A DNA stretch of 64,000 nt from an uncultured Chloroflexia bacterium (lineage in GTDB: Bacteria; Chloroflexota; Anaerolineae; CG2-30-64-16). Both the position numbers and the translations under genes were made by a program. Under the pieces are notes generated by a model. It ran no database searches. It had not been told where the DNA came from and saw only the letters and a program-made list of their open reading frames with translations. Position 1 is the stretch's first letter. Every line of letters starts with the position of its first letter. Where the stretch lies: contig CAWIPK010000006.1 of the NCBI GenBank assembly GCA_963837925.1, forward strand, positions 1,003,962-1,067,961. Reading direction: 5' to 3'. Positions 5,649 through 32,603 of this stretch are shown here, piece by piece.

Positions 5649-5730
5649 ACGGAGCGGCTTTTGCTCACCGACAGTTAGCAAGGGGCTGGTCCGCTGGGAC
5701 AGCCCCTTGTGATGTTTGAAGGAAGACGAC

Positions 5731-14100: not shown

Positions 14101-15294
14101 TTAGCGGAGGGTGACGCGGTCGATGCGCCAGTGTATATCGGCGGACTTGAGCCCGTTAGTCAAGCTGACTACCTCCCAGGCCAGTGTGTGCGTGCTTCCG
14201 TTCAGCACCACCGTCGTCGTGATTGGCACCCGAGCTTCGTTCCAGACCCAGGCCTGGTTCGTCAGCGTGTCACTGATCACGCTGCCGGCGCCCGGATAGC
14301 TGCTCAGGGTGGCCGGGTTTTCAACTGAGAGGATGCGCACTTTGTTCCGCTGAGGGTTCATGAGATCCTTCAGCGCGCCGGGAAGGCTGTCGCCGGCTGC
14401 CTGGGTCAAGAAACTATCCCCGGTCGGCGTAACATTGTCGCCGCCGTCGTTGGGGTTGCCGCCGCGTAGGACCGCCACGACCGCGCCCTCGGGATAAGCT
14501 GGGTCGACGGGCAGGTCGAAACAGAAGCCGATGGTAGCCTGGGTCGGGTCCTCGACGAAGTTGAGCGTGTTCGTCGCCGTCCGGCCGTAATAATGCTGCT
14601 CGCAGAGTTGGCTGCGGTCGTCCAGCCGATCGTAGGTGCGGATCGCGGTCAGGGGACGCGAAGCGCTCGGATCGGGCTCCACCTGGACGCGGGCATTGCC
14701 GACAAAGTGGCGCCCGAGGAAGCCCGCATCTTGACCTCCCCAGCGGAACACCGACACGCGGGTGGGGAACGGGCCACTGCTATAGCCAAAAACGGCGATC
14801 TCGGTGACCGAGCACTGAGTGAGATTGGACTGGTAGGCCGGCCAGAAGCCGACCTTCACTTCTGATTCTCCCAGAAAGCCTTGCCCCTTGCCGGGAAAAA
14901 TGTCGGGCAAGAGCCTGTAGGGGTAGAGAGAAGCCGGGCGGAACGGGCTGGCGTTGCCCGGGTTCTGGCGCACCCGGCCCGCCTCGAGGTCGTAAACTGC
15001 CCCGCCGATTGCCCCGGCCGCGACGGGCTTGTCGGGCGCGAAAGCCGGGCTCGGGTTGGTCTGATCGTAGCGATAGAACACCAGCCACTCCGGCTGTCCA
15101 TCGCCGTCATAATCGCAGGGGTAGAACTGTTTGGGCAGCACCGTCCAACGCGAAGGGATGAGTGCCTTGAGGTCAACGGGCAAAGTGACATCCGCCTGCC
15201 CGGCGGTTACGCCCGACACTGTCTGTCCCGAGAAGTAGAAGTAAGCCACCGCCATGGCTGCCAGGATCAGGACGGCCACTAACAGATTCCGCAT
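14101..15294 (-). CDS. N-terminally membrane-anchored extracytoplasmic hypothetical protein
   Basis: The ATG at 15294 (MRNLLVAVLILAAMAVAYFYF…) lies 20 nt after the lon stop. One TM helix is followed by a roughly 370-aa Gly/Pro-rich domain with a DYDGDGQPE calcium-site-like motif. The 5' extension in the track would overlap lon and is rejected. Confidence 0.5.
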   Translation of the reverse strand: MRNLLVAVLILAAMAVAYFYFSGQTVSGVTAGQADVTLPVDLKALIPSRWTVLPKQFYPCDYDGDGQPEWLVFYRYDQTNPSPAFAPDKPVAAGAIGGAVYDLEAGRVRQNPGNASPFRPASLYPYRLLPDIFPGKGQGFLGESEVKVGFWPAYQSNLTQCSVTEIAVFGYSSGPFPTRVSVFRWGGQDAGFLGRHFVGNARVQVEPDPSASRPLTAIRTYDRLDDRSQLCEQHYYGRTATNTLNFVEDPTQATIGFCFDLPVDPAYPEGAVVAVLRGGNPNDGGDNVTPTGDSFLTQAAGDSLPGALKDLMNPQRNKVRILSVENPATLSSYPGAGSVISDTLTNQAWVWNEARVPITTTVVLNGSTHTLAWEVVSLTNGLKSADIHWRIDRVTLR

Positions 15295-15316
15295 GCTGCT
15301 TCCGATGCTTTCCCCG

Positions 15317-17971: not shown

Positions 17972-20896
17972 ATGAGGAGGAATCTCAGACGGCACCTCCC
18001 GGTGCTCCTGGCTTACGTCGGTCTCAGCCTGCTGCTGACCTGGCCGCTGATCTTGCATTTCGGCAGCCGCGTGCCGGGCGATGGTATCGACGACCCCGCC
18101 CTGGCCTGGAACCTCTGGTGGGTGAAGCATTCCCTGGTTGATCAGTTGCAGAACCCCTTTGCGTGCAACTGGCTGTTCTGGCCGGTCGGCATCAACCTGG
18201 CCTTCTATACGCTGACCATACTCAACGGCCTGCTCAGTATCCCGCTTCAACTGGTGCTGGGCACGATCGCCGCCTACAACCTGCTCCTTTTGTTTTCGTT
18301 CGTGCTGGCGGGCTACGGGGCCTTCTTGCTCGGCCTGGCAGCCCTCGGTGGCGAGGGCCGGGCGCGACGCGCAGACGAGGGCGCACAGCACGGCCTGAAG
18401 GGAGCGGACCGGTCCCACTCGTGGTTCGTCCCGGCGGCCTTTCTAGGTGGCTGCCTCTATGCTTTCGCCTCGGCCAAGCTGTTTTACGCGTCGTTGGGCC
18501 AGGCGAATATCGCCAGTTCACAATGGATCCCCTTCGCTGCCTTCTATATCCTGCGGGCCGTCAGACCTTCTGGCCGGCTGCGCGACGCGGCTCTGGCGGC
18601 CTTGTTCCTGATCCTGCAGGCCTACGCCGAGCAGACCTACGCCTCGTTCCTGCTGATCTTCGCCTTGCTCGCCGTCGCCTGGGGCATCACGCGCTCACTT
18701 GAGGCCGGACGCCGGTCCCCGGGCGCGCCGTCGGGTCCGTCGAGGCGCCTGGCCCCACTTGCGCTGCGCCTGGTCTTGCTCGGCGCGGTATCTCTCGCCG
18801 GGATCGCCCCGTTCCTGGCCAATATGCTGCCTGACCTGCGGGCCGAAGGCGACCTTTTCTCGGCCGGCGGCGGTTTCGCCGATCTCTATTCCGCCGATCT
18901 GCTGGGCTTTGTGCTGCCGACCCAACTGCATCCGCTGCTGGGCGGCCTGATCCGCCAGGTGGCCGATGACTCTGCCACCCGCCCGGACGGCAGCCAGTTC
19001 CCGGTCAACAAAGGGCAGCAAATCTATGCCGGCTACGTGGCGCTGCTCCTGTCTGCAGCGGCCCTGCTGTTTGCCGCCCGCCGAGCGCAGAGGCGGCGCG
19101 CGCTCCGCAAGCCGGCGCCATCCGCTCCCTACTGTGCGGCTGAGCCCTGGCCAGGCGCTCCTGCTGCTCTCACTGCCGCCGCAACATTTCCCGGGGTGTG
19201 GTTCTGGTCGATTTCGGCCCTGCTGTTTTTCCTGCTTTGTCTCGGGCCGAGCCTGCGCTTCGACGGACACGACCTGGGCGTCCCCCTGCCTTTTGCTCTG
19301 GTGGCCCAACTGCCGTTCTTGAAGGCTAACCGCTACCCCAGCCGCTACAGCGTGATGTTGTTACTGAGCCTGGCGCCCCTGGTCGCCCTGGGAGTGCGCG
19401 GCATTCTGAGCGCTCGACCCTGGGTGCGCCGGCCCGCACTGAGCGGGTTCACCTATGCATTCCTCGGGGTCCTGCTGCTTCTCGAGCACCTCTCGGTTCC
19501 CTTGCCGCTGTTCGACCTTAGCGTTCCGGCCCTTTACGCACGTGTCGCCCAGACGCCCGGCGATTTCGCACTGCTCGAGCTGCCTCCCGGCTGGCGCAAC
19601 GGCGCGCGGGTGGCCGGTAAGCAGGACATCGTCATCATGCAAGAGCAGTGGTATCAGACGTATCACGGCAAGCGCTTGCTCGGCGGCAACACTTCGCGCA
19701 ACCCTGAGTTCAAGTTCCAATACTTCAGCGAGGATCCCACCCTGGCGCGCTTGATTGGCCAGACCGCTGCCGCCGATCTGCCGCAGCATACCGCCCTGCG
19801 TTCTGCCCTGGCCGCGAGCCCCGTCACGGATGCCGAACGCGCACGCGCCCGCCAGTGGGCCGGTTTCCTGGACCTGCGTTTCGTCATGGTGCACCGCGAT
19901 AAGGTGCCGCCTGCGACCGAGGAACTGCTCCAAGCCCTCCTGCCTGTCAAGCTCGCCGGCAGCGACGGCAGCCTGGCATTGTACGAGCTCCCGGCCGATT
20001 TGCCGGTCGAGCGGGCGTTCGACCTGGCCACCGATCAGGGCAGCCTGGCCCTCGGGGAAGGGTGGTCGCCCCCGCTGCGCCGGTCAGGAAGCGAGAGCGT
20101 CTCCGAAAGCCCGGTATACGCGGAACGCAGTGAGAGCCGCTTGCTGCTGCCCCTGCCGGAGAGCGCGACTTCGATCCGCCTGTTGGCCGGTTCCGAGGTG
20201 GCGGATCAGGCCGTAAGCCTGGTTGTGAACGGGGGTGTCCTGCCCGCCCAGCCGCTGCCGCAGACGACTGGCTGGTTGGCGTTCCCGGTACCTGCCGATC
20301 CGTCCCGCCCCCCGCTCAGCGACGTGCGGTTGCGTTTCGCGGTCCAGGCACCGCCTTCGCAGGTGGCATCGGGGCCTTTTCCGGTCGGGCGGACGGGGTT
20401 GACCTCGTCTGCCTCGCTCCTGGTGCGTAGCGCCGGCCAGGAGACGGGTGATTTCGGGCACATCTATCTTGACGGGGTTGACGTGGCCCTCAACCGGCGT
20501 GGCTTCAACCTGGTGGCGCTCTTTGGCGACGGAGAAGTGCTTGGCTCGGCTGCTTTTGACACCCATGCCGATAGCGAGGCCGGGACCCGCCTGGCGGCCT
20601 GGATCGGCGGCTTGCCCTCGGGTGTGCTGGTCGCCGGGGCCGTCCGTGACGAGGCATCCATGTACCTGGGCGATCAGGCGTTGGTCGCGCTGCGGTCGCT
20701 CGGGGTGCAGGGCGACCTGAGCGGACGCTTCCGCTGGGGACAGGCCTTCATCGGGGCGACCGGGTCAGCACCAGGCACCGCGCTGGAGGCGATTGAAGGA
20801 CTCCGCCCGGCCCAGGTCGGCCTGGGGCTGGCTCTCAACGCCCCATCCGTCGCGGCCGGGGTGGTGCGGGTCGAGATTGGCCCGGCAGGTAATTGA
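17972..20896 (+). CDS. Large polytopic GT-C-like membrane protein with a C-terminal ILEI/PANDER (GG-type) domain
   Basis: 974 aa with about 12 TM helices in the first ~500 aa and a periplasmic soluble region. The last ~130 aa (…GFNLVALFGDGEVLGSAAFDTHADSEAGTRLAAWIGGLPSGVLVAGAVRDEASMYLGDQALVALRSLG…) resemble the FAM3/ILEI/GG fold (compare the FAM3B-like pattern …TGEVL…FD…G…V…Y-DDGAT-L…LG…). Confidence 0.55.
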   Translation: MRRNLRRHLPVLLAYVGLSLLLTWPLILHFGSRVPGDGIDDPALAWNLWWVKHSLVDQLQNPFACNWLFWPVGINLAFYTLTILNGLLSIPLQLVLGTIAAYNLLLLFSFVLAGYGAFLLGLAALGGEGRARRADEGAQHGLKGADRSHSWFVPAAFLGGCLYAFASAKLFYASLGQANIASSQWIPFAAFYILRAVRPSGRLRDAALAALFLILQAYAEQTYASFLLIFALLAVAWGITRSLEAGRRSPGAPSGPSRRLAPLALRLVLLGAVSLAGIAPFLANMLPDLRAEGDLFSAGGGFADLYSADLLGFVLPTQLHPLLGGLIRQVADDSATRPDGSQFPVNKGQQIYAGYVALLLSAAALLFAARRAQRRRALRKPAPSAPYCAAEPWPGAPAALTAAATFPGVWFWSISALLFFLLCLGPSLRFDGHDLGVPLPFALVAQLPFLKANRYPSRYSVMLLLSLAPLVALGVRGILSARPWVRRPALSGFTYAFLGVLLLLEHLSVPLPLFDLSVPALYARVAQTPGDFALLELPPGWRNGARVAGKQDIVIMQEQWYQTYHGKRLLGGNTSRNPEFKFQYFSEDPTLARLIGQTAAADLPQHTALRSALAASPVTDAERARARQWAGFLDLRFVMVHRDKVPPATEELLQALLPVKLAGSDGSLALYELPADLPVERAFDLATDQGSLALGEGWSPPLRRSGSESVSESPVYAERSESRLLLPLPESATSIRLLAGSEVADQAVSLVVNGGVLPAQPLPQTTGWLAFPVPADPSRPPLSDVRLRFAVQAPPSQVASGPFPVGRTGLTSSASLLVRSAGQETGDFGHIYLDGVDVALNRRGFNLVALFGDGEVLGSAAFDTHADSEAGTRLAAWIGGLPSGVLVAGAVRDEASMYLGDQALVALRSLGVQGDLSGRFRWGQAFIGATGSAPGTALEAIEGLRPAQVGLGLALNAPSVAAGVVRVEIGPAGN

Positions 20897-21007: not shown

Positions 21008-24000
21008 ATGCCTAAGCATTTCTGGCGTGCGTCTATTTGCCTGGTTCTGTTGGTTGGGCTGGTCCTGGCCGCATTTTCTGCGCGTGTACATGCCGCCGCC
21101 GGCCCGGACGAGCTCTGGCAGACCTTTCAGGAAGGCTTGCTTTCGACGAACGTGCTGGCCGTCTTGCCAGCCGCCGACGGCGCCATTTGGTTCGGCACGG
21201 ACCGGGGCGCAACCCGCTATGATGGGGAGTGGCAGACGCTGAGCGGTTTGCCGGCCGGTGAGGTGAGCTCGTTGGCTCAGACCGACGATGGCGCCGTTTG
21301 GTTCGGGGTCGAAACGGGTGGGCTGGCGCGCCGGGCTCCGAACGGCGATTGCTGCCGGGTGTGGACCACCACCGAGGGCCTGCCCAGCGATGATGTCCAG
21401 GCGCTTCTCGTGGCTGGCGACGGCCGGCTGTGGGTCGGCACGGGCAGGGGACTGGTCCACCTGGAGGGAGATCGCCCGGTCATCGAAGCGCAGGCGCCGG
21501 CCGTGCCGGTCTCTGCGCTGGCCGCAGGTCCTGACGGCGGCTTGTGGGTCAGCCTGGCAGGCCGGGGGCTGTGGTATCGGGCTGCCGGCGGCGCCTGGCA
21601 GGCTGTTGAGGAGCGGGAGGCTCCGGGCAGTCCGGCGCATGCTCTGCTGGCTGAGCGGGACGGTGCCTTATGGGCCGGCACGGAGGACGGGCTGAGTTAT
21701 CATAAGGAAGGGGTTTGGAGCCGGCTTCCCCTTCTCGGCGACGAGAGCGGGGTCGCCGTCTACGCCCTGCTGCGCGACGACCAGGGCAGCCTTTGGGTGG
21801 GCACCGACAAAGGCATCTTTGTCAGCCCGGATGGCCTGCCCGGTTCCGCCCTCAAGCGCTTCCGTTCACAAGATGGGTTGGCCAGCGATCATGTGCGCGC
21901 CCTGGCGTTCGACCGGGATGGCGCGCTGTGGGCAGGCACGGTCGCCGGAGCCAGCCGTTATGCCGGCAACGTCTGGCAGCGCGTGCCGGACCCGGCGCTT
22001 GCAGCGGCGCGCATCAATGTCCTGCTGACGGACCGCGCCGGGCACACCTGGGTGGGCACTGAGGCCGACGGGCTGGCGCTGTGGGACGGTCGCGTCTGGC
22101 GGCACTTTGGAGCGGTCGAAGGCCTGAACGAGCGGCGCATCCTGGTCCTGTTCGAGGACGATCGCGGATGGCTATGGGCCGGCACGGGAAGCGGTGTCAG
22201 CTATTACGACGGCGCTGCCTGGCATGCCCTCGGTCCGGCGAACGGATTGCCCGCAGCGCCTGTCTGGTCGATCGCCCAGGACACGGCGAAGGATTTCTGG
22301 ATCGGCACAGACAACGGTTTGGCGCGCGGGACTGCTGCTGCCGGCTTCCGCCCGGTGGCGGAGTTTGGTTCGGTCTGTGTGACCGCTCTTCATTTGGCCC
22401 TGGACGGCTCACTCTGGGCCGGCACAAATCACGATGGCCTGCACCGGCTGCAGGCCGGCGCCTGGCAGCCGGTGCGGACCGGCGGCGCCCGGCCGCGTTT
22501 CACGAGCATCCTGGCCAACGGCATCGCCGAGGATCCAGGCGGATCACTGCTTGTCGCCAGCGCGGACGACGGTCTCTGGCGCTACCTGCCCGGTCCGGCC
22601 GGAGAGGGACAGTGGGAGCCGGTCGAGCTGGCCGCCGGCAGAACAGGACTCTTGGCCCTGGCTTACGCGCAGGGCAGTTTGTGGGTTGGGACGCGTGCCG
22701 GCCTGGCGCGTGCGGACGATCGCTCGTCACAGTGGTACGCCGGGCCGGTGCTGCCGAGCCCGGAAGTCTCGGCGATCGCGCCCGGTGCGGACGCCAGCTT
22801 CTGGCTGGGCACGCCGCAAGGATTGGTGCACTACCGGCCGGAGCGCAGCCTGCCCTGGGTGCGCATCGCCGCCGTTAACCTGGTCGAGGCGCCAGGCGGG
22901 ACGGTGACCCTGCCGGCGGACCAGCCGCTGGCCGTGCGACTGACCGGCGGCCGGGCGGGTGTGCGCCCCGAGAAAGTGAAGTACCTCACCCAGTTGGACG
23001 GTGAGGATCGCGAGCCGAGGGTTTTCTCGGGCGGACTGATCTCGTATGCTGATGTCCGGCTGCTGCCAGGCACCTACCGCCTGCGCGCCTGGGCACGCGA
23101 CGAGGCCTTTAACTATTCGGAGCCGGTCGAGGTGGCCATTACAATCCCCGTCCCAGAACCTCTGGTCGAGCTGCCCGGCGGCCGGCGTCTGCCGGCTGCG
23201 CTTTTCAATGCGGGCCTGGCCCTCGGCGCCGTTGCCTTGGGCATGTTGCTGACCGCGAGCGGACTCACCGTGCGGTCCTACGGGAAAGAGAAAAAGCGCA
23301 GCGCGGCCTCGGCCGCACGCCGCCGGGAAGCGTTCGGTCGCCGCTTCAATCCCTACATCTCCGGGGGGCCCGTGCGCAATCCCGATATGTTTTTCGGGCG
23401 CCACGATCTCTTGCGCCGCATCCTGAATGGGCTGCACCAGAACAGTATCATGATCAGCGGCGAGCGACGTATCGGCAAGACAACCCTGCTCTACCGGCTG
23501 GCAGAGGAGTTGCAGGCGGCGGACGATCCCGAATGGCTCTTCATTCCGGTCATGGTCGACATGGAGGGCACGCCGCAGCAGGAGTTCTTCCATCTGCTGA
23601 TGGAGAACATCTGCGGCGCTCTGCGCGGCGTCCCGCCTGGCGGGACCACTTTGCCGTTGCGCTTCACCTCGGCGCGGGCCGGTAATTATTCGGACCGAGA
23701 CTTCATCGCCGATCTGCGCGTCTTGATCGAGGCGCTGGCACCGGTTGTGGCGCCCCGCACTGCCCGCCTGATCTTGTTGATCGACGAAATGGACGTGATG
23801 AACACCTACGACACGCTCGTCCAGCAGCAATTGCGGCGCATCTTCATGAGCAGTCAGGCTCACAACCTGGGCGCGGTCGTGGCCGGCATCCAGATCAGCA
23901 AGGCCTGGGATCGCGTCGAGAGTCCCTGGTATAACATGTTCAACGAGATCCAGGTGAAGCCCTTCTCCCAGGATGATGCCCGGCGCCTGCTGATCGAGCC

Positions 24001-24193
24001 CATCAGCGGTGTCTATGAGTGGGAAAAGCGGGCCCTCGAGTACGTGCTCGCGCGGGCTGAGGGCCGTCCCTATCGCCTGCAACAGTATGGCCTGCAGGCG
24101 GTCAACCACATGCTGGCCGCGGAGCGGGTGCGCATCACCCTGGCCGACGTGGAGGCTGCGGACGGGCTCGTCGAGCCGGGGCGGACGGACTAG
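21008..24193 (+). CDS. Transmembrane sensor: signal peptide + ~14 Reg_prop beta-propeller repeats + Y_Y_Y domain + 1 TM + cytoplasmic P-loop NTPase (PF01637/AAA-like)
   Basis: The signal peptide is MPKHFWRASICLVLLVGLVLAAFSARVHA. Repeats of the type …DG.LW.GT..GL..Y.G..W… (for example ALLVAGDGRLWVGTGRGLVHLEG and VLFEDDRGWLWAGTGSGVSYYDGAAWHAL) span residues ~45-610. The Y_Y_Y-like region reads …KYLTQLDGED…LISYADVRLLPGTYRLRAWARD… The TM helix is ALFNAGLALGAVALGMLLTASGLTV. The cytoplasmic part carries Walker A (ISGERRIGKTTLLYRL) and Walker B (LILLIDEMDV). Confidence 0.7.
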   Translation: MPKHFWRASICLVLLVGLVLAAFSARVHAAAGPDELWQTFQEGLLSTNVLAVLPAADGAIWFGTDRGATRYDGEWQTLSGLPAGEVSSLAQTDDGAVWFGVETGGLARRAPNGDCCRVWTTTEGLPSDDVQALLVAGDGRLWVGTGRGLVHLEGDRPVIEAQAPAVPVSALAAGPDGGLWVSLAGRGLWYRAAGGAWQAVEEREAPGSPAHALLAERDGALWAGTEDGLSYHKEGVWSRLPLLGDESGVAVYALLRDDQGSLWVGTDKGIFVSPDGLPGSALKRFRSQDGLASDHVRALAFDRDGALWAGTVAGASRYAGNVWQRVPDPALAAARINVLLTDRAGHTWVGTEADGLALWDGRVWRHFGAVEGLNERRILVLFEDDRGWLWAGTGSGVSYYDGAAWHALGPANGLPAAPVWSIAQDTAKDFWIGTDNGLARGTAAAGFRPVAEFGSVCVTALHLALDGSLWAGTNHDGLHRLQAGAWQPVRTGGARPRFTSILANGIAEDPGGSLLVASADDGLWRYLPGPAGEGQWEPVELAAGRTGLLALAYAQGSLWVGTRAGLARADDRSSQWYAGPVLPSPEVSAIAPGADASFWLGTPQGLVHYRPERSLPWVRIAAVNLVEAPGGTVTLPADQPLAVRLTGGRAGVRPEKVKYLTQLDGEDREPRVFSGGLISYADVRLLPGTYRLRAWARDEAFNYSEPVEVAITIPVPEPLVELPGGRRLPAALFNAGLALGAVALGMLLTASGLTVRSYGKEKKRSAASAARRREAFGRRFNPYISGGPVRNPDMFFGRHDLLRRILNGLHQNSIMISGERRIGKTTLLYRLAEELQAADDPEWLFIPVMVDMEGTPQQEFFHLLMENICGALRGVPPGGTTLPLRFTSARAGNYSDRDFIADLRVLIEALAPVVAPRTARLILLIDEMDVMNTYDTLVQQQLRRIFMSSQAHNLGAVVAGIQISKAWDRVESPWYNMFNEIQVKPFSQDDARRLLIEPISGVYEWEKRALEYVLARAEGRPYRLQQYGLQAVNHMLAAERVRITLADVEAADGLVEPGRTD

Positions 24194-24225
24194 CGTTGGC
24201 AAGCGGTCCTTGGCATCGCGGCCCG

Positions 24226-24252
24226 CCGGCCGCGGCGAACCGCCGCGGCCGG
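24226..24252. terminator. Very stable GC hairpin (~12-bp stem, triloop) 33 nt after the sensor gene stop
   Basis: cggccgcggcg-aac-cgccgcggccg, read directly from the sequence. Confidence 0.35.
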
Positions 24253-24364
24253 GCAGCATTGCGCGGAGCGGGCGAAACATCGCCGCCCGCAGCACCGAAC
24301 GGGTCGCCAGATTTGCCGCCGACGCCCGGCCGGCGTTCGGGCCCGGACGGCAGAGAGGAACAGA

Positions 24365-25642
24365 GTGCGTAATCCTTACGTGACCGGCCCTTTCGTCACG
24401 GGACGCAAGTTCTATGGCCGCAAGGAACTGATCGACTATCTGCTTCAGGGCGAGAACCCGGCCTGCTGGGTGATCGGCAATCGGCGCATCGGCAAGACTT
24501 CTTTGTTGCGCCAGTTGGAGCAACTGGCGCTCGGCGAACCGGCCCTCATGCCCTTGTTTTGGGATATGCAGGGCAGCGATTCGTATGAGCGTTTGGGGCA
24601 GTACCTGGCGGACGCGGTCAGCGAGCATGGCGAACGGCTCCAGTGCCTGACCGTACCGCCTGCCTCCCTCAGCCAGGAAGACCCGGCCGCGCTCCTGGCC
24701 GATCTGCGACGGGCCGCGGCCAGGGCCGGACGCGAGATCCTCCTGTTGTGCGATGAACCCGAAGCGCTCATCAAGATCACCCGCGCCGAGCCGGAGGCGA
24801 TGCAGCGGCTGCATCGCGAACTGACGGGGGGGGCAGGCTTGCGGGTGGTCGTGGCCTCCACGCAGGGCATATATGAGTTGCACGACGTATGCGTGGGCTG
24901 GCCCACGTCGTCGTTCCTTTCGGGTTTTGATGTGTCCCGCACGATGGGCGGGCTGGACACACCCAGCGCGCAGGCATTGATCATACAGGAACAGAGCACC
25001 AAGCCCCTCCAGGTGGCGCCGGATGTGATCGAGACGATCAGCGACTGCACCAACAACCATCCCTACATGATCCAACAGCTTTGCTCGCGTCTGTTCAACA
25101 AGGAGGGTTGGCTGCGGCCGATCGCCGCCGACGACCTCGAAGTCGACCCGGTTCTACGTGGGTTTTTCAGCATGGACTACCACTCCCTGACGCGGCCCGA
25201 GAGGCGGGTTGTGCGTGCGGCGCAGCGCAGCGGGGCAACCGCCGAGCAGGACCTCATTCAGGCCAGTGGTTGTGAGCCCGCTGAGGCGCACCGCCGGATA
25301 CGCAACCTGGAGCGTCTCGGGTATCTTCGCTGCATCTACGGGCGCTATACGATCGGCAATCAGTTCCTTGCTAACTGGCTGGCTGAAGAGCCGGTCAGCG
25401 CGGACGAGGCGCCCGCCCCCGTCTCAGACGCCGCTCTGCAGACCGCACTGGCGAATCGGCAGGAGCAAGAGGCCGGCCTTTTGCGCGCACAGCTCAACGC
25501 CCGGCGTGCACGCCTCGTCGAGCTCGAGGCGGTCCGGGCACGTGACTTGCTTGATGTTTCGCCCAAGGTACTGGCCGAGGTCGAAGAGTTACAGATAGGG
25601 ATCGGCGACCTGCGCCGGCTGCTCGACGAGGCCGTGACCTGA
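24365..25642 (+). CDS. Soluble paralogous P-loop NTPase (PF01637-like) with C-terminal winged-helix and coiled-coil
   Basis: A GTG start follows a GAGAGGAA RBS. The N-terminus FYGRKELIDYLLQGENPACWVIGNRRIGKTSLLRQL parallels the FFGRHDLLRRILNGLHQNSIMISGERRIGKTTLLYRL of the upstream gene. Walker B is EILLLCDEPE. The C-terminal HTH-like segment reads …LTRPERRVVRAAQRSGATAEQDLIQASGCEPAEAHRRIRNLERLGYL… and is followed by a predicted coiled coil. Confidence 0.65.
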   Translation: MRNPYVTGPFVTGRKFYGRKELIDYLLQGENPACWVIGNRRIGKTSLLRQLEQLALGEPALMPLFWDMQGSDSYERLGQYLADAVSEHGERLQCLTVPPASLSQEDPAALLADLRRAAARAGREILLLCDEPEALIKITRAEPEAMQRLHRELTGGAGLRVVVASTQGIYELHDVCVGWPTSSFLSGFDVSRTMGGLDTPSAQALIIQEQSTKPLQVAPDVIETISDCTNNHPYMIQQLCSRLFNKEGWLRPIAADDLEVDPVLRGFFSMDYHSLTRPERRVVRAAQRSGATAEQDLIQASGCEPAEAHRRIRNLERLGYLRCIYGRYTIGNQFLANWLAEEPVSADEAPAPVSDAALQTALANRQEQEAGLLRAQLNARRARLVELEAVRARDLLDVSPKVLAEVEELQIGIGDLRRLLDEAVT

Positions 25643-25704: not shown

Positions 25705-26817
25705 TTGGCGACAAACCAAGACATCCCGCTCGTCGACCTGCAGGTCCAGTATGCAGGCCTGCGCGTGGAGATCGACGGTGCGATCCGGCGGGTGATCGAT
25801 AACGCCAGCTTCATCATGGGACCCGAGGTGCAGGACTTTGAGGCGGCCTTCGCACGCTATGTGGGGGTGAGCGAAGCGGTGGGTGTGGCCTCGGGCAGCG
25901 CGGCCCTGCAGTTGGCGCTGCTTGCCTGCGGCATCGGACCCGGCGACGAGGTCATCACTACCCCACACACCTTCTTCGCTACCGCCGAGGCCATCTCGCA
26001 AGTCGGTGCTACCCCGGTATTTGCCGATATTCAGCCAGACACGTACAATCTTGACCCGGAACGGGTGGAGCAGGCAATCACCCGGCGCACGCGGGCGATC
26101 ATGCCCGTGCACCTGTACGGTCAGACGGCCGACATGCGCGAGATTGTGGCCCTGGCCAGGCGCCATGGGCTGCGGGTGATCGAGGATGCGGCCCAAGCGC
26201 ACGGCGCCACCCACTACGGGCAGCGGGCCGGAGGTATCGGCGACCTGGCTTGTTTCAGCTTTTTTCCGAGCAAGAACCTGGGCTGCTATGGGGATGGTGG
26301 CATGGTCACGACGGCCGACCCGGATCTCGCTGCACACCTGCGACGGCTGCGCGACCACGGGCGTACGAGCAAGTATGAGCATGCAGAGGTGGGTTGGGGC
26401 GCACGCCTGGATAGCCTTCAGGCGGCCATCCTGGGCGCCAAGCTGCCGCACCTCGAGGAATGGAATACATGCCGGCGGGCAGCCGCGCTGCGCTATAACG
26501 CGCTGCTGGCCGGCTGCGGGGTAGTGACGCCGGCGGAGCGCCCGTACAACTGCCACGTCTACTATTGCTATGTGATCCGCGCGCCCAAACGCGACCGGTT
26601 GTTCGTAGAGTTGACCGCCCGAGGCATCGGCGCCGGGATTCACTATCCGATCCCCCTGCACTTGCAGCCGGCCTACAGAGCGCTGGGGTGGCTGCCCGGA
26701 GCTTTCCCCGTCAGCGAAGCCGCGGCGGACGGTGTGCTCTCGCTGCCGATGTATGCGGAAATAACGCCGGAGCAGCAGGCCCTCGTTGCCTCGGCGATCA
26801 AGGCCTGTGTGGGGTAA
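25705..26817 (+). CDS. DegT/DnrJ/EryC1/StrS family PLP-dependent sugar aminotransferase (ArnB-like)
   Basis: 370 aa with …DVQYAGLRVEIDGAIRRVIDNASFIMGPEV… and a PLP-lysine region (…FFPSKNLGCYGDGGMVTT…). Confidence 0.9.
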   Translation: MATNQDIPLVDLQVQYAGLRVEIDGAIRRVIDNASFIMGPEVQDFEAAFARYVGVSEAVGVASGSAALQLALLACGIGPGDEVITTPHTFFATAEAISQVGATPVFADIQPDTYNLDPERVEQAITRRTRAIMPVHLYGQTADMREIVALARRHGLRVIEDAAQAHGATHYGQRAGGIGDLACFSFFPSKNLGCYGDGGMVTTADPDLAAHLRRLRDHGRTSKYEHAEVGWGARLDSLQAAILGAKLPHLEEWNTCRRAAALRYNALLAGCGVVTPAERPYNCHVYYCYVIRAPKRDRLFVELTARGIGAGIHYPIPLHLQPAYRALGWLPGAFPVSEAAADGVLSLPMYAEITPEQQALVASAIKACVG

Positions 26818-26819
26818 GC

Positions 26820-27812
26820 ATGTCCCTTGTCCTGTCTGTCCTGGTTCCGGCCCGTAACGAAGCCGAGAACGTGCCGGAGCTGGTCGCGCGCGTCGGGAAT
26901 GCTTTCGGTGAACTCGGGCTGGATCCTGACTGCGCCGAGCTCCTGCTGGTGAACGACGGTTCGACGGACGGCACCGGCGCGATCGCCGAAGAGTTGTGTG
27001 GGCCGTACCCTTTTCTGCGCGTCATTCACCATCGGCGTAACCTCGGCCTGACGGCTGCGCTCTCGACCGGGTTCCGGCTGGTCCGCGGCGACCTGGTCCT
27101 GTTCCTGCCTGCCGATCTGGAATCCGACCCTGAGGCCGACATTCCGTTGCTCGTCGGCAAGCTGCGCGAGGGTTACGATGTGGTCGCGGGCTGGCGGCAG
27201 GGCCGCAAAGAGGGCAAGGTGCTGGCCTCGGGCATCTACAATACGGTCTCCCGCCGGCTGTTCGGGCTCACGGTCCACGACATGAACTGGATCAAGGGCT
27301 TCCGGCGCGAGGTGATCGAGGACTTGCCGCCGCTGCGCTCGGACTGGCATCGTTTCTTGCTGCACATCGCCGCTCACGAGGGCTACCGGATCGGCGAAGT
27401 GCCGACCGACTGGCACAAGCGGCGCGCCGGGCGCTCGCACTATGGCCTCGGTCGGATTCCCATTTCCTTGCTCGACGTGCTGGTGGTCTGGTTCTTGCTC
27501 ACCTTCAGCCGCGCCCCGATGCGCTTCTTCGGCGGCCTGGGTTTGGGCGCTCTGGTGGCCAGTGCTCTCACCTACGCCTGGCTGATGTCGCTCTGGCTAA
27601 GCAGCGCCACCCAGAAGCGGCCCGTCTTCCTCTTCGCGGGCGGACTTGCGATCGCCGGCCTGCTGCTGTTTCTGATCGGCTTCCTGGCCGAGTTGATCGT
27701 GAACCAGGGCGAACGGCTGGCCGAGCTTGAGCGCAGCGCCCGTGCAGAAGGCCGTCTCGGTCGAGGCAGCGGACCGGGCACCAGGACGCGCGAACGCGGC
27801 GACCCGTTATGA
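26820..27812 (+). CDS. GT2 polyprenyl-phosphate glycosyltransferase (DPM1/GtrB/ArnC-like) with two C-terminal TM helices
   Basis: The ATG is at 26820, directly after the upstream stop. The translation is MSLVLSVLVPARNEAENVPELV…LLVNDGSTDGTGAIA…, a GT-A DxD-type fold. The C-terminal TM pair is typical of the lipid-carrier-loading GT2 subfamily. The 5' extension in the track is rejected. Confidence 0.85.
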   Translation: MSLVLSVLVPARNEAENVPELVARVGNAFGELGLDPDCAELLLVNDGSTDGTGAIAEELCGPYPFLRVIHHRRNLGLTAALSTGFRLVRGDLVLFLPADLESDPEADIPLLVGKLREGYDVVAGWRQGRKEGKVLASGIYNTVSRRLFGLTVHDMNWIKGFRREVIEDLPPLRSDWHRFLLHIAAHEGYRIGEVPTDWHKRRAGRSHYGLGRIPISLLDVLVVWFLLTFSRAPMRFFGGLGLGALVASALTYAWLMSLWLSSATQKRPVFLFAGGLAIAGLLLFLIGFLAELIVNQGERLAELERSARAEGRLGRGSGPGTRTRERGDPL

Positions 27813-30526
27813 CGCCAGCTCGTCGGGCAGCGAACCGGGCGGCGCCCGATGTCTCTCTCAAAGCGCCTCGCGCCGCCGGTCAGCCGGCCGGCTGGTTGCT
27901 CGCGCTCCTCATAGTGGGCTTTTCCCTGTGGTTCTCCTGCTACAGCATCCGTCTGCACGACGCGCACCTGACCTACAAGGCCGACCTGGGCCAGATGGAC
28001 CTTGCCATCTGGAACACCGCCCACGGGCGCTTCTTGCAAGAGACCAGAGACGCTTCCATAAGCACGCGCCTCACCGATCACTTCGAGCCGATTTTCGCTT
28101 TGATCGCGCCGATCTACTGGCTTTGGGACGACGTGCGAGCGCTGCTCATCCTGCAGGCCGTCTGTCTCGCTCTCGGCGCCTGGCCCATCTATCTGCTGGC
28201 ACGGCGCAGGCTGATGGCAGCCAGGCAGGGGGACGGGGCACCGTGGGGCGCCCTCGCGTTCGCAGCGGCCTATTTGTCCGTACCCGCGCTCGAAGCACCG
28301 CTGGTCAGCGACTTTCACGCCCTGCCTCTGGCCGTGCCGCTGATCGGCTGGGCATTCTGGACGATCGAACGGGGGCAGTGGCGCCGCTTCGTCCTCGCGG
28401 CGCTCCTGTTGGCGAGCGTTCAGGAAGGCATGGCCCTGCTGACGGCCACGCTGGGTCTGTACGCGGCCGCGCGGATGTCCCGCGCACTCCAGCAGGGCAC
28501 GGGCGGAAAGCCGGACGCGGTGGGGGAGTTGAATCATCAGACAGGGCCCTGGCCGGGGGTGTTGGTGGGAGCCGCGGTTTGCCTCCTCGGCCTGGCCTGG
28601 TTTTACGTCGCGACGTTCCTGATCATCCCGCGCTTCGCTGCCCAGGCTTATGGTCTGCAAGGCTCACCGTACGCGGCGCGCTTCGGCGCCCTCGGCGACG
28701 GCTTCGCCGGCGTGCTCAGGACGATCGTCACGCGGCCCGTGCTTGTGCTGCGCACCCTGGCGGAGCCGCTGCGCCTGCAATACCTGGTCGGGCTGTTAGC
28801 CCCGACGGCTTTCCTGGCGCTCCTGGCGCCCGACATCCTCTTCGTCGGTTTGCCGCTGCTGCTCGCGAACCTGTTGAGCGACTTCCCGCTGCAGTATTCC
28901 GGCGAGCTGCACTACTCGGCGCCCCTGGTTCCCTGTTTCGTCATCGCCGGCATAATTGGGCTCACGCGTCTGCTGACCTGGCTGGGCCCGGGTCAGGCCA
29001 CCTCACGTGTGCCTCGCCTGGCTCGCCCCAGCTCGTTCCGGTTCGCGAAGCTTGCCGCCACGGCAGGCGTTGCTCTCGTCTTGATCGGCGCAATGGCTGA
29101 CCATGCCTGGGCCGGCTACACGCCGCTCGGCCGGGGATACTGGCGCCGGACGCCGGGAGGTTGGCCCCCGGTGACCGCGCACGATCGCTTGCTGGCACGT
29201 TTCAGTGGTGAGATTCCGCGCGCTGCCGCCCTGAGCACTACCCCGGACTTGTGGCCGCATCTCAGCCACCGCGTGGCCATCTATCAGTTCCCAATCGTCT
29301 CCAGTGCCGACTGGGCCTTGGTGGATGTGTCGGGCGACACGAACCGGCACCCGGCCGACATTCAGAGGGCCGTCCATGACCTGCTCGCCGGCGGCTGGGG
29401 GGTCGCCGACGCGGCCGACGGCTATATGCTGTTGCAGAGGGGCGGCGGAGCAGCGGCACTGCCGGACGCGTTCTATGATTTCGCACGCGCTGGGTCTGCC
29501 CAGCCGGAGCACCGGCTCGACGTGGCTTTCGTCGACAAGAATGGCGTGCCCCTCGTCAGGTTGCTCGGCTACGACGTGATCGACGATCCGAAATGGCGGC
29601 AGACGGGCTTCCGCTTCTACTGGCAGGCTCTGGCGCCGCTGTCTGGGGACGCAAGCATTCTGCTCCAGGTGGTCGGGCCGGACGGCACCCTCGTCGACGA
29701 CACGACGCAGCGCCCGATGCCCGCCCTGGCCTGGTATCCGCCCGCCCTCTGGCGGCCCGGCGAAACGGTGGTGACCGAGAAGCCGGGCTGGTACCTGCCG
29801 GCGATATGGGCGCCGCTTTTGACGGTGTCGACGCACGGCGTGCCCCTGGGCCCCGACCTATCGGAAGGCAAGCTCACCGCGCCGCCCGGCAGGGACGGCT
29901 CCGACACGGGAACTACGGCCTTCGAGGATGGGCGGGCTCTGTCTGTCTCCGCCAGTCAGCTGCTCCTGCCCGCCTGGACGCGCCGGGATGGGCGCCTGGT
30001 CGCCTGGCAGGGGCCGGCGACATCTCAGTCGCAGGCGGCGTTGTTTGAGGCCGACGGTTGGGGGGCCCGCTTGGCGGCCTATCGCGCGCCGGGCCGCGCG
30101 GCTCCGGGCAGCGCTTTGCCCGTCCTTCTGCGTTGGCAGGCACTGGACGGTGTCCAGGCCGAGCGAGACTACACGGTCTTCTTGCACTTGCGGGATGCCG
30201 CGGGGCAAACGGTGGCGAACGCCGATGCCACGCCGACCTGGTTCGTCTCTCGCCCGACCTCGACTTGGTCCCGCCCGGACGGCTTGCCGTTTGTGACCTG
30301 GGATGCCCACAGCCTGACGCTGCCCGGCGCCCTGCCCACCGGGCGCTACAGCCTTGTCGCAGGTCTCTACGACTGGCAGAGCGGCCGGCGCGTGGCGCTG
30401 GTGGGGCCAGACGGGAACGATGGCGGCGACGAATACGTCCTTGGATACGTGGAGATCGATCCGCGCGCCGTGCCGCAGCCCGACCTGGCCTGCTTGATGG
30501 CGCAGGAAGCCTGCGCCTCTCAGTAG
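27809..30526 (+). CDS. GT-C-like polytopic membrane protein (DUF2079-like N-terminal half) with a long duplicated extracytoplasmic C-terminal module
   Basis: 905 aa. The first ~480 aa hold about 10 TM helices with conserved …YKADLGQMDLAIWNTAHGRF…DHFEPIFALIAPIYWLW…, recalled as DUF2079-like. The C-terminal 420 aa contain two copies of a ~110-aa module also found at the C-terminus of the next gene. Confidence 0.5.
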   Translation: MTPARRAANRAAPDVSLKAPRAAGQPAGWLLALLIVGFSLWFSCYSIRLHDAHLTYKADLGQMDLAIWNTAHGRFLQETRDASISTRLTDHFEPIFALIAPIYWLWDDVRALLILQAVCLALGAWPIYLLARRRLMAARQGDGAPWGALAFAAAYLSVPALEAPLVSDFHALPLAVPLIGWAFWTIERGQWRRFVLAALLLASVQEGMALLTATLGLYAAARMSRALQQGTGGKPDAVGELNHQTGPWPGVLVGAAVCLLGLAWFYVATFLIIPRFAAQAYGLQGSPYAARFGALGDGFAGVLRTIVTRPVLVLRTLAEPLRLQYLVGLLAPTAFLALLAPDILFVGLPLLLANLLSDFPLQYSGELHYSAPLVPCFVIAGIIGLTRLLTWLGPGQATSRVPRLARPSSFRFAKLAATAGVALVLIGAMADHAWAGYTPLGRGYWRRTPGGWPPVTAHDRLLARFSGEIPRAAALSTTPDLWPHLSHRVAIYQFPIVSSADWALVDVSGDTNRHPADIQRAVHDLLAGGWGVADAADGYMLLQRGGGAAALPDAFYDFARAGSAQPEHRLDVAFVDKNGVPLVRLLGYDVIDDPKWRQTGFRFYWQALAPLSGDASILLQVVGPDGTLVDDTTQRPMPALAWYPPALWRPGETVVTEKPGWYLPAIWAPLLTVSTHGVPLGPDLSEGKLTAPPGRDGSDTGTTAFEDGRALSVSASQLLLPAWTRRDGRLVAWQGPATSQSQAALFEADGWGARLAAYRAPGRAAPGSALPVLLRWQALDGVQAERDYTVFLHLRDAAGQTVANADATPTWFVSRPTSTWSRPDGLPFVTWDAHSLTLPGALPTGRYSLVAGLYDWQSGRRVALVGPDGNDGGDEYVLGYVEIDPRAVPQPDLACLMAQEACASQ

Positions 30527-30539
30527 GGCTTGGCGCCTG

Positions 30540-32603
30540 ATGTCAGGGACTGATAGGGATAGAAGGACAAAGGACCGGCAAACCTTGGCGACTGGCCTGA
30601 ACCGACGGCTCGCTTACCCGCTTCTTCTGGCGCTCATACTGCTCGCCTTCGGTCTGCGCGTCTACCACCTGAGCGCCCAGAGCCTTTGGTACGATGAGGC
30701 TGTCACGGCGCAGGTGGCCTCGCGCGGCCTGGTCGAGTTGACGCGTTGGACGGCGGACGACATCCAGCCCCCGCTCTACTACTACCTGGTCGCCGGCTGG
30801 ACGCGCCTGGCCGGGCAAGGCGAGTGGGCCTTGCGCTTTCCCTCGGTCTTCTTCGGCGTGCTGACGGTGCCGCTTCTGGCGGTGCTGGCCGGCCGTCTTT
30901 TCGCCAGGCGTCGAGGCGCAGGCGGGGTTCCATTGGCGGCAGCCTTGCTGGGCGCGCTTTCTCCGGCTTACGTGTACTACGCTCAGGAAGCGCGCATGTA
31001 CACCCAGCTTGTCTTCCTGGGTTCGCTGACCGGCTATGCCCTCCTGCGTGCCGCCGACGCGCGCGAGCAGAGGAAGGCGCGCGGCTGGTGGCTCGCGTTC
31101 GTGCTCGCCGCGGCGGCGACTCTCTACACCCACTACTTTGGCGTGTTCCTTCTGTTGGCCTACGGCGTCTGCGCGCTGGTGACCTGGCTCATCCGCAGCC
31201 CGTTGCTGGATGGGCGACCGGGAAGGCGCCTGGTGGGCCGGGCAGCCCTGGCCGGCCTGGCAGTGTTCGCTCTTTATCTGCCCTGGCTGCCGTCGATGCT
31301 CAGGCGTTACGGCCTCGACCGCAGCTACTGGCAGGGCAGTCTGAAGCTTGGCGAGGCGCTGCGCCACGTTGCCATCAGCTTCACCGCCGGAGCGCCCGAG
31401 ACCGCGCAGGAAGGCGCGGCCGTGGGACTGCTGCCCTGGTTTGGCCTGGCCCTCGGCATAGCAGTCCTGGCGCTCCTGTTGTCGCCGGGAGGTCGAGGCC
31501 GCTCGACCGGCCGGACGTGGCACGTCCTGGCCGTGCTCGCGCTGCCGGTGATCGCGGTCCTGGCCCTCGCCTCCCGCTCGCCCAAATTCAACGCGCGTTA
31601 CCTGCTGATGGTGTCGCCGGCCTATCTGCTGCTGCTGGCCGGAGGGGCCGGCGCGCTGCTGAACTGGGGGAGTGGCGAGTGGCCGGCCGCCAGCGCGGCC
31701 CGCCGGCTCGCGCGCTGGCGCGCCGCCCCGCACATCCTCGGTCCTTGCCTGGCGATAGCCGTACTTGCCCTGCCTGCCGGCGTTAGCTATCGCAGCCTGC
31801 ACAATTGGTTCGCGGACCAGGCTTTCACCAAGGCGCAGTGGCGGGAAATGGTCGGAGGTGTCACCCGGCGCATGGCGCCAGATGATGCCGTCGTATTGGT
31901 ATCTGGCCATGCTTACCCGGCCTGGGAGTACTACGCGCCCTCCGTCCCAGCGCTTCGCCTGCCTGACATGGACGTGCTGGACGTGACCCGCGTGCTGGGA
32001 TTCGACGTCGCGACGCAGCTCGGTCCGGCCCTGGCCGGTAAGTCCGGCGTGTGGTTGGTGGAGTGGCAGGCCGATACGGTGGACCCGATGGGCGTTGTAC
32101 CCTACTTGCTGGACCGGGCCGGGACGGAGGTCCCGTTCGATCGGGGTTACTGGGGCTTGCAAGTGCGGCACTGGCAGTTGCGTCCTGCTGCGCAGTACCT
32201 GGCCCTGCCTCAGCCGGAACACCCGCAAGCGGCCGATTTGGGCCATCGGTTGGCACTGGTAGGGTGGGATGAACCGCGCGACGGGCAGATTGCCGTTTAC
32301 TGGCGGGCGCTGCAAAGCCTGGATCGTGACTACCAGGTCTCGCTGCGGGCGGAAGACCTGGCAGGCAACGAAATACTCGGTCATGGCTGGGACGGCCGGC
32401 CGGCAAGCTACGAATACCCGGCCACGCGTTGGCGTGCAGGCGAGGTCATCTTCGGACGCTACCCGCTGCCCGCCGGGCTTCCGGCCGGCGGCTACTACGT
32501 CGCCCTGACCGTCTATGATTCCAGCGAGCCGTCGGGCCTCGACGTGATGGATGTCGCGGGCAATCCGGCCGGCAAACGCGTGCGGTTGGGGCCGCTGCGG
32601 TGA
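30540..32603 (+). CDS. GT-C glycosyltransferase of the ArnT/PMT (GT39/GT83-like) family
   Basis: The N-terminal polytopic domain carries the family hallmark …SLWYDEAVTAQVASRGLVELTRWTADDIQPPLYYYLVAGWTRLAGQGEWALRFPSVFFGVLTVPLL…, which matches the periplasmic loop 1 motif of ArnT/PMT enzymes. The C-terminal ~120 aa are one copy of the module shared with 27809..30526. Confidence 0.7.
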   Translation: MSGTDRDRRTKDRQTLATGLNRRLAYPLLLALILLAFGLRVYHLSAQSLWYDEAVTAQVASRGLVELTRWTADDIQPPLYYYLVAGWTRLAGQGEWALRFPSVFFGVLTVPLLAVLAGRLFARRRGAGGVPLAAALLGALSPAYVYYAQEARMYTQLVFLGSLTGYALLRAADAREQRKARGWWLAFVLAAAATLYTHYFGVFLLLAYGVCALVTWLIRSPLLDGRPGRRLVGRAALAGLAVFALYLPWLPSMLRRYGLDRSYWQGSLKLGEALRHVAISFTAGAPETAQEGAAVGLLPWFGLALGIAVLALLLSPGGRGRSTGRTWHVLAVLALPVIAVLALASRSPKFNARYLLMVSPAYLLLLAGGAGALLNWGSGEWPAASAARRLARWRAAPHILGPCLAIAVLALPAGVSYRSLHNWFADQAFTKAQWREMVGGVTRRMAPDDAVVLVSGHAYPAWEYYAPSVPALRLPDMDVLDVTRVLGFDVATQLGPALAGKSGVWLVEWQADTVDPMGVVPYLLDRAGTEVPFDRGYWGLQVRHWQLRPAAQYLALPQPEHPQAADLGHRLALVGWDEPRDGQIAVYWRALQSLDRDYQVSLRAEDLAGNEILGHGWDGRPASYEYPATRWRAGEVIFGRYPLPAGLPAGGYYVALTVYDSSEPSGLDVMDVAGNPAGKRVRLGPLR

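Follow-up and report, generated by a model that had tools for sequence, protein, structure and literature searches.

The sensors of the hybrid two-component systems (HTCS) of Bacteroides, such as BT4663 (PDB 4a2l) and BT4673 (3va6/3ott), combine two Reg_prop propellers, an Ig-like domain of the Y_Y_Y type and one transmembrane (TM) helix with HisKA, HATPase_c, receiver and AraC domains, and are embedded in carbohydrate-related loci with catabolic genes (polysaccharide utilization loci). Other described systems share single traits with the one reported here. STAND regulators are soluble, single-chain ATPases, in which C-terminal repeats serve for sensing and a separate LuxR or SARP domain for DNA binding; among them, MalT is under the membrane control of MalK, and the AfsR/LAL-type proteins are STAND ATPases regulating transcription. 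In ToxR/CadC, the membrane protein itself contains the DNA-binding domain, and an ATPase does not take part. An FGR motif ahead of Walker A and a GxP motif within the lid are common to ORC/Cdc6 and to the archaeal ATPases of family PF01637 (PAB2304, 2qen; SSO1545, 2fna), themselves functionally uncharacterised. Lastly, according to PMC4098917, in ExeA/GspA an AAA_22 ATPase with a peptidoglycan-binding periplasmic domain helps to assemble the type II secretin. In this work, a stretch of 64,000 nucleotides, referred to as the window, was analysed from the genome of an uncultured Chloroflexia bacterium (Chloroflexota, Anaerolineae, CG2-30-64-16; assembly GCA_963837925.1, contig CAWIPK010000006.1, positions 1,003,962 to 1,067,961 of the forward strand), focusing on the gene of a 1061-aa membrane protein (the sensor) and on the gene lying directly downstream (the partner). 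All the evidence is computational. The protein is regarded as a signal-transduction ATPase spanning the membrane, split into two paralogues and having interchangeable inputs.

The sensor is a type I receptor whose ectodomain is HTCS-like and whose membrane-proximal AAA+ module has intact catalytic motifs; the same 1061-aa product corresponds to a called gene, without a name, on a 1.34-Mb public contig. An earlier note on this DNA, made from the sequence alone, had proposed about 14 Reg_prop blades for its extracytoplasmic part, which the analysis bore out. The Pfam Reg_prop model matches the whole protein with E = 5e-47 and the isolated ectodomain with E = 1.4e-50, in nine individually significant stretches; 14 W-x-G-T...G-L repeats can be counted between aa 61 and 606, with a period of 37-45 aa (about 41 aa); and the PDB entries retrieved are the solved sensor domains of Bacteroides HTCS (3v9f, 4e-24; 4a2l, 8e-22; 3va6/3ott, 1e-16), PorZ being a weak match. 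Fourteen blades suffice for two seven-bladed propellers. The Y_Y_Y domain, also claimed in the note, stood in part. On a 181-aa fragment the corresponding Pfam model scored 16.6 bits (E = 0.007), under its cut-off of 26.6, and by sequence the segment retrieved from the PDB a weak Ig-domain match and no other; on the other side, PF07495 is precomputed in five full-length relatives sharing 30-35% identity with the sensor (P0184, P0205, P0212, P0214, and P0216). The segment spanning aa ~613-720 is therefore regarded as an Ig-like domain, probably of the Y_Y_Y type.

Both the signal peptide and the single TM helix of the earlier reading were recovered by hydropathy, the former as a hydrophobic 19-mer (aa 9-27, Kyte-Doolittle value 2.34) and the latter at aa ~729-755. 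The TM helix is followed, on the cytoplasmic side, by the strongly basic sequence RSYGKEKKR, an orientation in which the propellers are extracellular and the C-terminus is cytoplasmic; in the AlphaFold2 (AF2) model a juxtamembrane helix extends over aa 751-778, and the ATPase module starts 24 residues past the TM helix. As stated in the note, no kinase or receiver is present: the search of the sensor against Pfam gave zero matches to HisKA, HATPase_c, receiver (Response_reg) and AraC-type helix-turn-helix (HTH) models, and the cytoplasmic fragment, rescanned at E <= 10, retrieved P-loop families alone. The ectodomain belongs to the HTCS sensor-module family; the protein taken as a whole is not an HTCS, given the absence of kinase, receiver and AraC domains in these searches. 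The two also differ in that here the output consists of an AAA+ ATPase and a separate partner, the Y_Y_Y domain is sub-threshold, the host belongs to the Chloroflexota and the neighbouring genes are biosynthetic rather than catabolic, even though the locus is carbohydrate-related in both cases. The assertion that this sensor module always feeds a histidine kinase turned out to be wrong, as Reg_prop/Y_Y_Y ectodomains were found joined to a SpoIIE phosphatase (P0225), a GGDEF domain (P0236), a CHAT domain (P0233) and TPR repeats (P0240); moreover, Xanthomonas GGDEF proteins carrying Reg_prop and Y_Y_Y have been reported (PMC6637768).

The prediction of a cytoplasmic P-loop NTPase with Walker A and Walker B motifs proved correct. 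The G, K and T residues of Walker A are invariant in the family alignments A1 and A3, and D926 and E927 of Walker B are invariant in alignment A1. ATPase_2 (PF01637) scored 29.2 on the whole protein and 33.6 on the isolated domain (cut-off 33.2), and AAA_22 scored 27.5 and 30.9, respectively (cut-off 27); with the whole protein, no other ATPase model exceeded its threshold. On the isolated domain, AAA_16 and the STAND models remained under their cut-offs (nSTAND1, 24.2 vs. 27.1; NACHT, 18.5 vs. 26.7; nSTAND6, 16.2 vs. 27.7). At the level of the family, ATPase_2 matches 55/65 members at E <= 1e-4, with a best value of 5e-14. The AF2 model of the cytoplasmic part, built on 45 homologues, is a confident one (predicted local distance difference test, pLDDT, 86.5; predicted template modelling score, pTM, 0.79). 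Its juxtamembrane helix leads into an alpha/beta base of five strands and then into a helical lid, after which the chain ends. Its nearest structures are PAB2304 (2qen) and ORC/Cdc6, TnsC being a further AAA+ match. The motifs FFGRHDLL (aa 795-802) and EGRPYRL (aa 1018-1024), both kept in alignments A1 and A3, represent the FGR and GxP motifs.

The sensor therefore resembles the PF01637 and ORC/Cdc6 proteins in the FGR motif preceding Walker A and in the G-x-P of the lid, and differs from them in being membrane-tethered, in having motifs particular to its family (NPY..G.PV and W..ESPWYN.F), and in the absence of a winged helix: past the GRP motif of the lid the chain continues for about 37 aa, with helices alone up to the end in the AF2 model. 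It consists of a nucleotide-binding domain and a lid, with no effector domain, its sensing part being N-terminal and extracellular. According to the model, the cytoplasmic part is an AAA+ base-plus-lid of the PF01637/ORC-Cdc6 kind and not a full STAND protein, since it has neither the winged helix nor the remaining domains of the STAND layout. The label "STAND-like" used in the note holds for the FGR and GxP motifs; it does not hold for the domain composition, nor for the Pfam STAND models, all of which are sub-threshold. A likeness to MalT and to the AfsR/LAL proteins might exist in the possible use of a nucleotide-dependent oligomerisation switch tied to a sensor and, in the partner, to a winged helix; unlike them, the system described here has an N-terminal, extracellular sensor and two paralogous ATPases. 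A role in replication is not suggested for either the sensor or the partner.

The partner is a soluble ATPase carrying its own Walker A (GNRRIGKTS, aa 38-46) and Walker B (LLLCDEPE, aa 126-133), both invariant across the partner family, and its N-terminal region displays the signature of the sensor module, NPY..G…F.GR…G.RRIGKT[ST]LL..L. The comparison of the sensor and partner families with hhalign (BLASTP was also run) gave a probability of 99.2% (E = 6e-20; 245 columns), the alignment extending over both base and lid, which shows that the sensor module and the partner are paralogues. The two differ past the lid. The AF2 model of the partner (pLDDT 89.6) contains a three-helix, two-strand winged-helix domain (aa ~277-331), located in the same position as in ORC and PAB2304, followed by a long C-terminal helical hairpin (aa 355-424); the downstream "NTPase-wHTH" gene of the earlier note is in agreement with this model. 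Some members of the partner family bear the automatic JGI label "DNA-binding Lrp family transcriptional regulator".

The association of the two genes was surveyed in other genomes. A species-level scan (one genome per GTDB species) yielded at least 341 loci with the ATPase module, the best 80 of which were inspected; 74 of these had at least 1.5 kb on the 3' side of the sensor gene and were regarded as informative. In 67/74 informative loci a partner homologue lies downstream on the same strand, within 150 nt in 57 cases, and in several loci the partner gene overlaps the stop codon of the sensor gene; translational coupling of the two is frequent. The pairing is kept in different surroundings, as in a Caldilineaceae chromosome (L004/L005, 36% identity), and also when the input is different: in L009 a TPR-TM-ATPase gene overlaps a gene whose 467-aa product is homologous to the partner (32% identity, E = 4e-41), and in L006 a receiver-ATPase gene overlaps that of another homologue (38% identity). 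The distance between the two genes is 0.5-1.7 kb in several loci of Caldilineae and of the Amarolinea type (L024-L027, L055, L060, and L069). A third component encoded in the gaps of 1.1-1.7 kb was considered and discarded, since unrelated genes occupy them (an opposite-strand Cys/Met pyridoxal-phosphate enzyme in L024 and an open reading frame, ORF, with no Pfam match in L060). In the window, the 171-nt spacer between sensor and partner harbors a perfect GC-rich hairpin starting 33 nt past the stop codon of the sensor and not followed by a T-run, which might act as an attenuator or in RNA stability, or else be a repeat element.

The sensor architecture is not rare. Among the 120 best full-length matches, more than 100 clusters possess the full architecture, with 30-77% identity and 93-100% coverage; they come from Anaerolineae, Caldilineae and other metagenome-assembled genomes (MAGs) of Chloroflexota, and the most specific names that they bear in the databases are "ligand-binding sensor domain-containing protein", "AAA family ATPase" or "hypothetical". 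The best 80 loci belong almost all to Anaerolineae or Caldilineae, including Ca. Amarolinea aalborgensis, Ca. Caldilinea saccharophila and Litorilinea, with a few from KSB1, Calditrichia and one gammaproteobacterial MAG. The protein is thus one of a large Chloroflexota family, and the finding is more general, and less singular, than it appeared at first reading. The family is common in this phylum and uncharacterised, the latter in agreement with the earlier note: the literature search disclosed no description of Reg_prop-ATPase or REC-ATPase_2 proteins (REC, receiver) and no characterised system with the architecture of the sensor, and NCBIfam contains no model for either the sensor or the partner. 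The family is not mentioned in the accessible portions of a STAND survey (Nature 2026, PMC13581612) and of a census of archaeal two-component systems (PMC5847659).

When the ATPase module alone was used as a query, HMMER retrieved 364 representatives (50% identity) at E <= 1e-30. The module is always C-terminal, the median distance from Walker A to the protein end being 242 aa, and in 112/135 members Walker A is preceded by a hydrophobic helix, the median distance from the helix end being 51 aa (interquartile range 50-55). What precedes it changes: besides Reg_prop, the N-termini contain TPR (20/65 of the shorter members), REC (4) or GAF (3) domains, as well as CarboxypepD_reg with Y_Y_Y, Big_7 and FG-GAP. 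The GAF form has three TM segments; the REC forms are soluble, and their acidic pocket is preserved, as are the phospho-acceptor Asp and the Thr/Ser and Lys residues. Since a fixed C-terminal module is placed behind interchangeable sensory or receiver domains, it behaves as a portable signalling output domain. The unit of interest is the conserved ATPase pair found behind many sensors, and not the single protein. In one member of the family, a 467-aa metagenomic protein (P0063), a receiver-type domain (PF00072) is apparently not N-terminal but inserted within the ATPase module, between Walker A and Walker B (columns ~290-440 of alignment A4). In two long-read metagenome assemblies (L007, 4565-7452; L008, 3767-7197), two or three ORFs take the place of a single sensor gene, separating the Reg_prop part from the part with Y_Y_Y and the ATPase; these splits are most likely frameshift errors in the assemblies, which would also explain many of the short matches of 300-500 aa.

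The two genes are placed within a glycan-assembly locus, as had been noticed earlier. It comprises a DegT aminotransferase, an ArnC-like GT2 glycosyltransferase, DUF2079 and PMT_2 genes and two further GT2 genes and, upstream of the sensor, a 974-aa ILEI protein. The latter matches the Pfam ILEI model (2e-13) and the stem of POMGnT1 (PDB 5ggj) and has about 10 or more hydrophobic segments in aa 1-520; its multi-TM N-terminal half, to which no Pfam or NCBIfam model matches, looks like an undescribed GT-C-type family. The ArnC-like protein has C-terminal TM segments (aa 294-379), and its best PDB match is ArnC (3e-25), followed by DPMS and GtrB. From what is known of these families, the locus would follow an Arn- or Gtr-type logic, in which an amino sugar is made, loaded on polyprenyl phosphate and transferred outside the membrane. 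The ILEI GT-C gene occurs upstream of the sensor in 31/80 loci, and the DegT and ArnC-like GT2 genes in 36/80 each; about 40% of the loci retain an Arn-like glycan set. The receiver variant of L006 also adjoins an orthologue of the ILEI GT-C gene (39% identity over the full length). The association with a glycan route is frequent and crosses the input types, without being universal. In L006, a gene for a cNMP_binding protein (5216-5977) lies between the ILEI GT-C and the receiver-ATPase genes, hinting at a cyclic-nucleotide input in that locus.

The coordinates of the features discussed are reported in Table 1.

Table 1. Features of the sensor-partner locus (nucleotide positions refer to the window, aa positions to the respective protein).
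Feature	Position	Strand	Basis or remark
Multi-TM GT-C-like protein, 974 aa, with a C-terminal ILEI/POMGnT1-stem-like domain of carbohydrate-binding type	17972..20896	+	Upstream of the sensor
Sensor-ATPase gene, 1061 aa plus stop, type I membrane receptor	21008..24193	+	ATG-started ORF
Signal peptide, aa 1-29, predicted cleavage after VHA (between SARVHA and AAG)	21008..21094	+	Hydropathy only
Fourteen Reg_prop blades, aa ~35-612	21110..22843	+	Pfam, blade-motif count, PDB matches
Ig-like beta-sandwich segment, sub-threshold Y_Y_Y, aa ~613-720	22844..23167	+	Pfam, PDB
Single TM helix, aa ~729-755, preceding a basic juxtamembrane helix	23192..23272	+	Hydropathy
C-terminal AAA+ ATPase output module, aa 780-1061, with NPY..G.PV, FFGR, Walker A, Walker B, W..ESPWYN.F insert and GRP lid motif	23345..24190	+	
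Walker A GERRIGKTT, aa 818-826	23459..23485	+	Sequence
Walker B LLIDEMD, aa 923-929	23774..23794	+	Sequence
Perfect GC-rich hairpin, 12-bp stem, 3-nt loop	24226..24252	+	In the sensor-partner spacer
Partner gene, 425 aa, paralogous soluble ATPase	24365..25642	+	Directly downstream of the sensor
DegT-family nucleotide-sugar aminotransferase	25705..26817	+	Pfam 4e-124; PDB sugar aminotransferases including ArnB
ArnC/GtrB-type polyprenyl-phosphate glycosyltransferase, GT2	26565..27812	+	Pfam GT2
DUF2079 GT-C-type membrane glycosyltransferase-like gene	27809..30526	+	Pfam, multiple TM segments
PMT_2 GT-C-type membrane glycosyltransferase-like gene	30540..32603	+	Pfam, multiple TM segments

The reading that we favour, which is tentative and not far from an even balance, is that glycan sensing drives an ATP-dependent assembly of the sensor with its partner, which in turn would control the glycan genes. 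Starting from the architecture, fold, paralogy, input swapping and gene linkage observed, this mechanism would add a ligand, an interaction between sensor and partner, DNA binding and a set of regulated targets. A glycan of the cell envelope or of the environment, a plausible input in view of the locus context, would bind the ectodomains and shift their arrangement; the shift would be passed on by the TM and juxtamembrane helices, altering the way in which the tethered AAA+ modules associate with one another depending on the nucleotide. These, in their turn, might recruit, co-assemble with or release the paralogous partner, whose winged helix would switch the transcription of the adjacent envelope-glycosylation genes, that is, of an Arn-like route formed by the sugar aminotransferase, the ArnC-like lipid-carrier glycosyltransferase and the GT-C transferases. 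Possible analogies are the co-assembly of ORC-Cdc6 and the membrane control of the STAND regulator MalT. Such a mechanism would resemble ToxR/CadC in signalling across the membrane with no phosphotransfer and in ending in a winged-helix fold, which in the present case is borne by a separate soluble ATPase.

It is also possible, albeit with lower confidence, that the sensor and its winged-helix paralogue represent an unrecognised class of signalling systems, in which the signal would reach the genome or an effector through the nucleotide-dependent assembly of two paralogous AAA+ modules and not through phosphotransfer, proteolysis or a second messenger; its inputs would be propeller, TPR, GAF or receiver domains, and in Chloroflexota it would monitor the envelope and tune an Arn-like amino-sugar route. 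The usual schemes of transmembrane signalling in bacteria are those of histidine kinases, Ser/Thr kinases, anti-sigma factors, chemoreceptors, cyclic-nucleotide enzymes and ToxR-like regulators, to which, if this is true, a widespread receptor family with an AAA+ switch and a winged-helix paralogue would add another one. Understanding the output module would allow the annotation of hundreds of proteins whose present label is "AAA family ATPase" or "hypothetical"; the finding also offers a testable handle on the control of envelope glycosylation in filamentous Chloroflexota, including the wastewater filaments Ca. Amarolinea and Ca. Caldilinea. To our knowledge, almost nothing is known about the regulation of envelope glycosylation in these organisms.

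Several observations weigh against a glycan-responsive transcriptional switch. The matches of the partner to the IclR, MarR and DeoR HTH models of Pfam are weak and all under threshold, and its winged helix sits where the structural winged helix of STAND/PF01637 proteins is located, so that DNA binding may fail. A simple k-mer search, performed as an 8-mer enrichment with merged reverse complements on 80 sensor, 26 ILEI and 42 DegT upstream regions, disclosed no conserved operator-like palindrome upstream of these genes, the only enriched words being promoter-like (TTGACA and TGGCATAAT). Seven of the 74 informative loci have no partner downstream, and for this reason the partner is not obligatory in cis. 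The glycan genes are missing from over half of the 80 loci, and Reg_prop sensors outside Bacteroides are not proven to be glycan-specific.

Some of these data would fit an output that is not transcriptional. The receptor and the partner might form a membrane ATPase assembly that organises or gates the glycosylation machinery (a GT-C or GT2 enzyme, or a flippase) in an ExeA/GspA-like manner, the winged helix being structural and the hairpin of the partner acting as a docking arm. The sub-threshold HTH matches and the failure of the k-mer search to find an operator motif speak in favour of this idea, as do the tight linkage of the pair to membrane glycosyltransferases, the position of the module, held 12-30 residues from the membrane, and the fact that AAA_22 is the only ATPase model exceeding its cut-off on the whole protein (27.5 vs. 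27). A precedent is offered by the ExeA-peptidoglycan-ExeB system, which, as described in PMC4098917, comprises an AAA_22-type membrane ATPase with one TM, an extracytoplasmic domain and a second protein, like the system described here, whose extracytoplasmic domain is likely glycan-binding. The topology, however, is the opposite, the ATPase being N-terminal and cytoplasmic in ExeA and C-terminal, behind an N-terminal ectodomain, in the sensor; the ectodomains differ, no PG_binding model matches the sensor, the secretion-system context is absent, and the second protein is a paralogous ATPase and not ExeB. Furthermore, the input is swapped for REC and GAF domains as in signalling proteins, and the pair also occurs where no glycan genes are nearby (L004 and the L049-L070 group). 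A direct action on the machinery is the main rival, less likely than the transcriptional control that we favour.

A role in defence, with a STAND-like NTPase that senses a phage or a competitor at the cell surface and responds via the partner, as Avs/NLR-type systems do intracellularly, is highly improbable. It might be suggested by the sub-threshold nSTAND1 and nSTAND6 matches and by weak PADLOC matches to the candidate systems PDC-S01 and PDC-S27 (sensor, E ~1e-3; partner, E = 1.6e-5), which are confined to the P-loop region. Nevertheless, all the STAND and PADLOC scores are under the family thresholds, neither protein contains a nuclease, TIR, protease or pore-former effector domain, no defence genes were found in the neighbourhood, and the synteny beside Lon and the glycan genes is stable across Anaerolineae.

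Even less credit can be given to a Wzc-type co-polymerase or bacterial tyrosine kinase (BY-kinase; background in PMC9800525), whose autophosphorylation would control the length and export of glycan chains with the soluble paralogue as part of a split kinase. The layout is superficially similar, with an ectodomain, a TM helix and a P-loop domain encoded in a glycan locus together with a second cytoplasmic P-loop protein. This analogy is largely refuted by fold, tail sequence and topology: the fold is AAA+ (2qen, ORC/Cdc6, TnsC) and not of the MinD/SIMIBI class, no Wzz or BY-kinase model of Pfam matches, the C-terminus (…VEAADGLVEPGRTD) has no tyrosine cluster, and the protein has a cleaved signal peptide and one TM helix instead of two flanking TM helices.

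Finally, the view of the gene as a decayed hybrid sensor that has lost its kinase, or as a mis-assembled fusion of a propeller with an ATPase, which might be drawn from the split genes of L007 and L008, is refuted by conservation and retains practically no probability, given that the architecture is uninterrupted (~1050-1170 aa) in more than 100 clusters and in dozens of species genomes, that the Walker motifs are invariant and the spacing from the TM helix to Walker A is fixed, and that the split cases look like assembly frameshifts.

Other features of the window are worth reporting. A 782-aa antisense ORF (22727-25075, minus strand) overlaps the sensor and partner genes and was treated as non-coding, since long spurious ORFs are expected at 65-68% GC. 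Near Lon, the minus strand encodes a protein combining SLFN_AlbA_2, HATPase_c_4 and HTH_DeoR domains (12682-14079) and a 438-aa protein with no Pfam match (14101-15417). One or both of them are found again, together with Lon, upstream of the sensor cassette in relatives, namely, the protein of ~390 aa in L001-L003 and the SLFN_AlbA_2 protein in L002-L003. Lastly, the gene for the large subunit of ribonucleotide reductase (44693-48730, minus strand) is split by an intein with a LAGLIDADG homing-endonuclease domain and has a C-terminal TSCPD domain.

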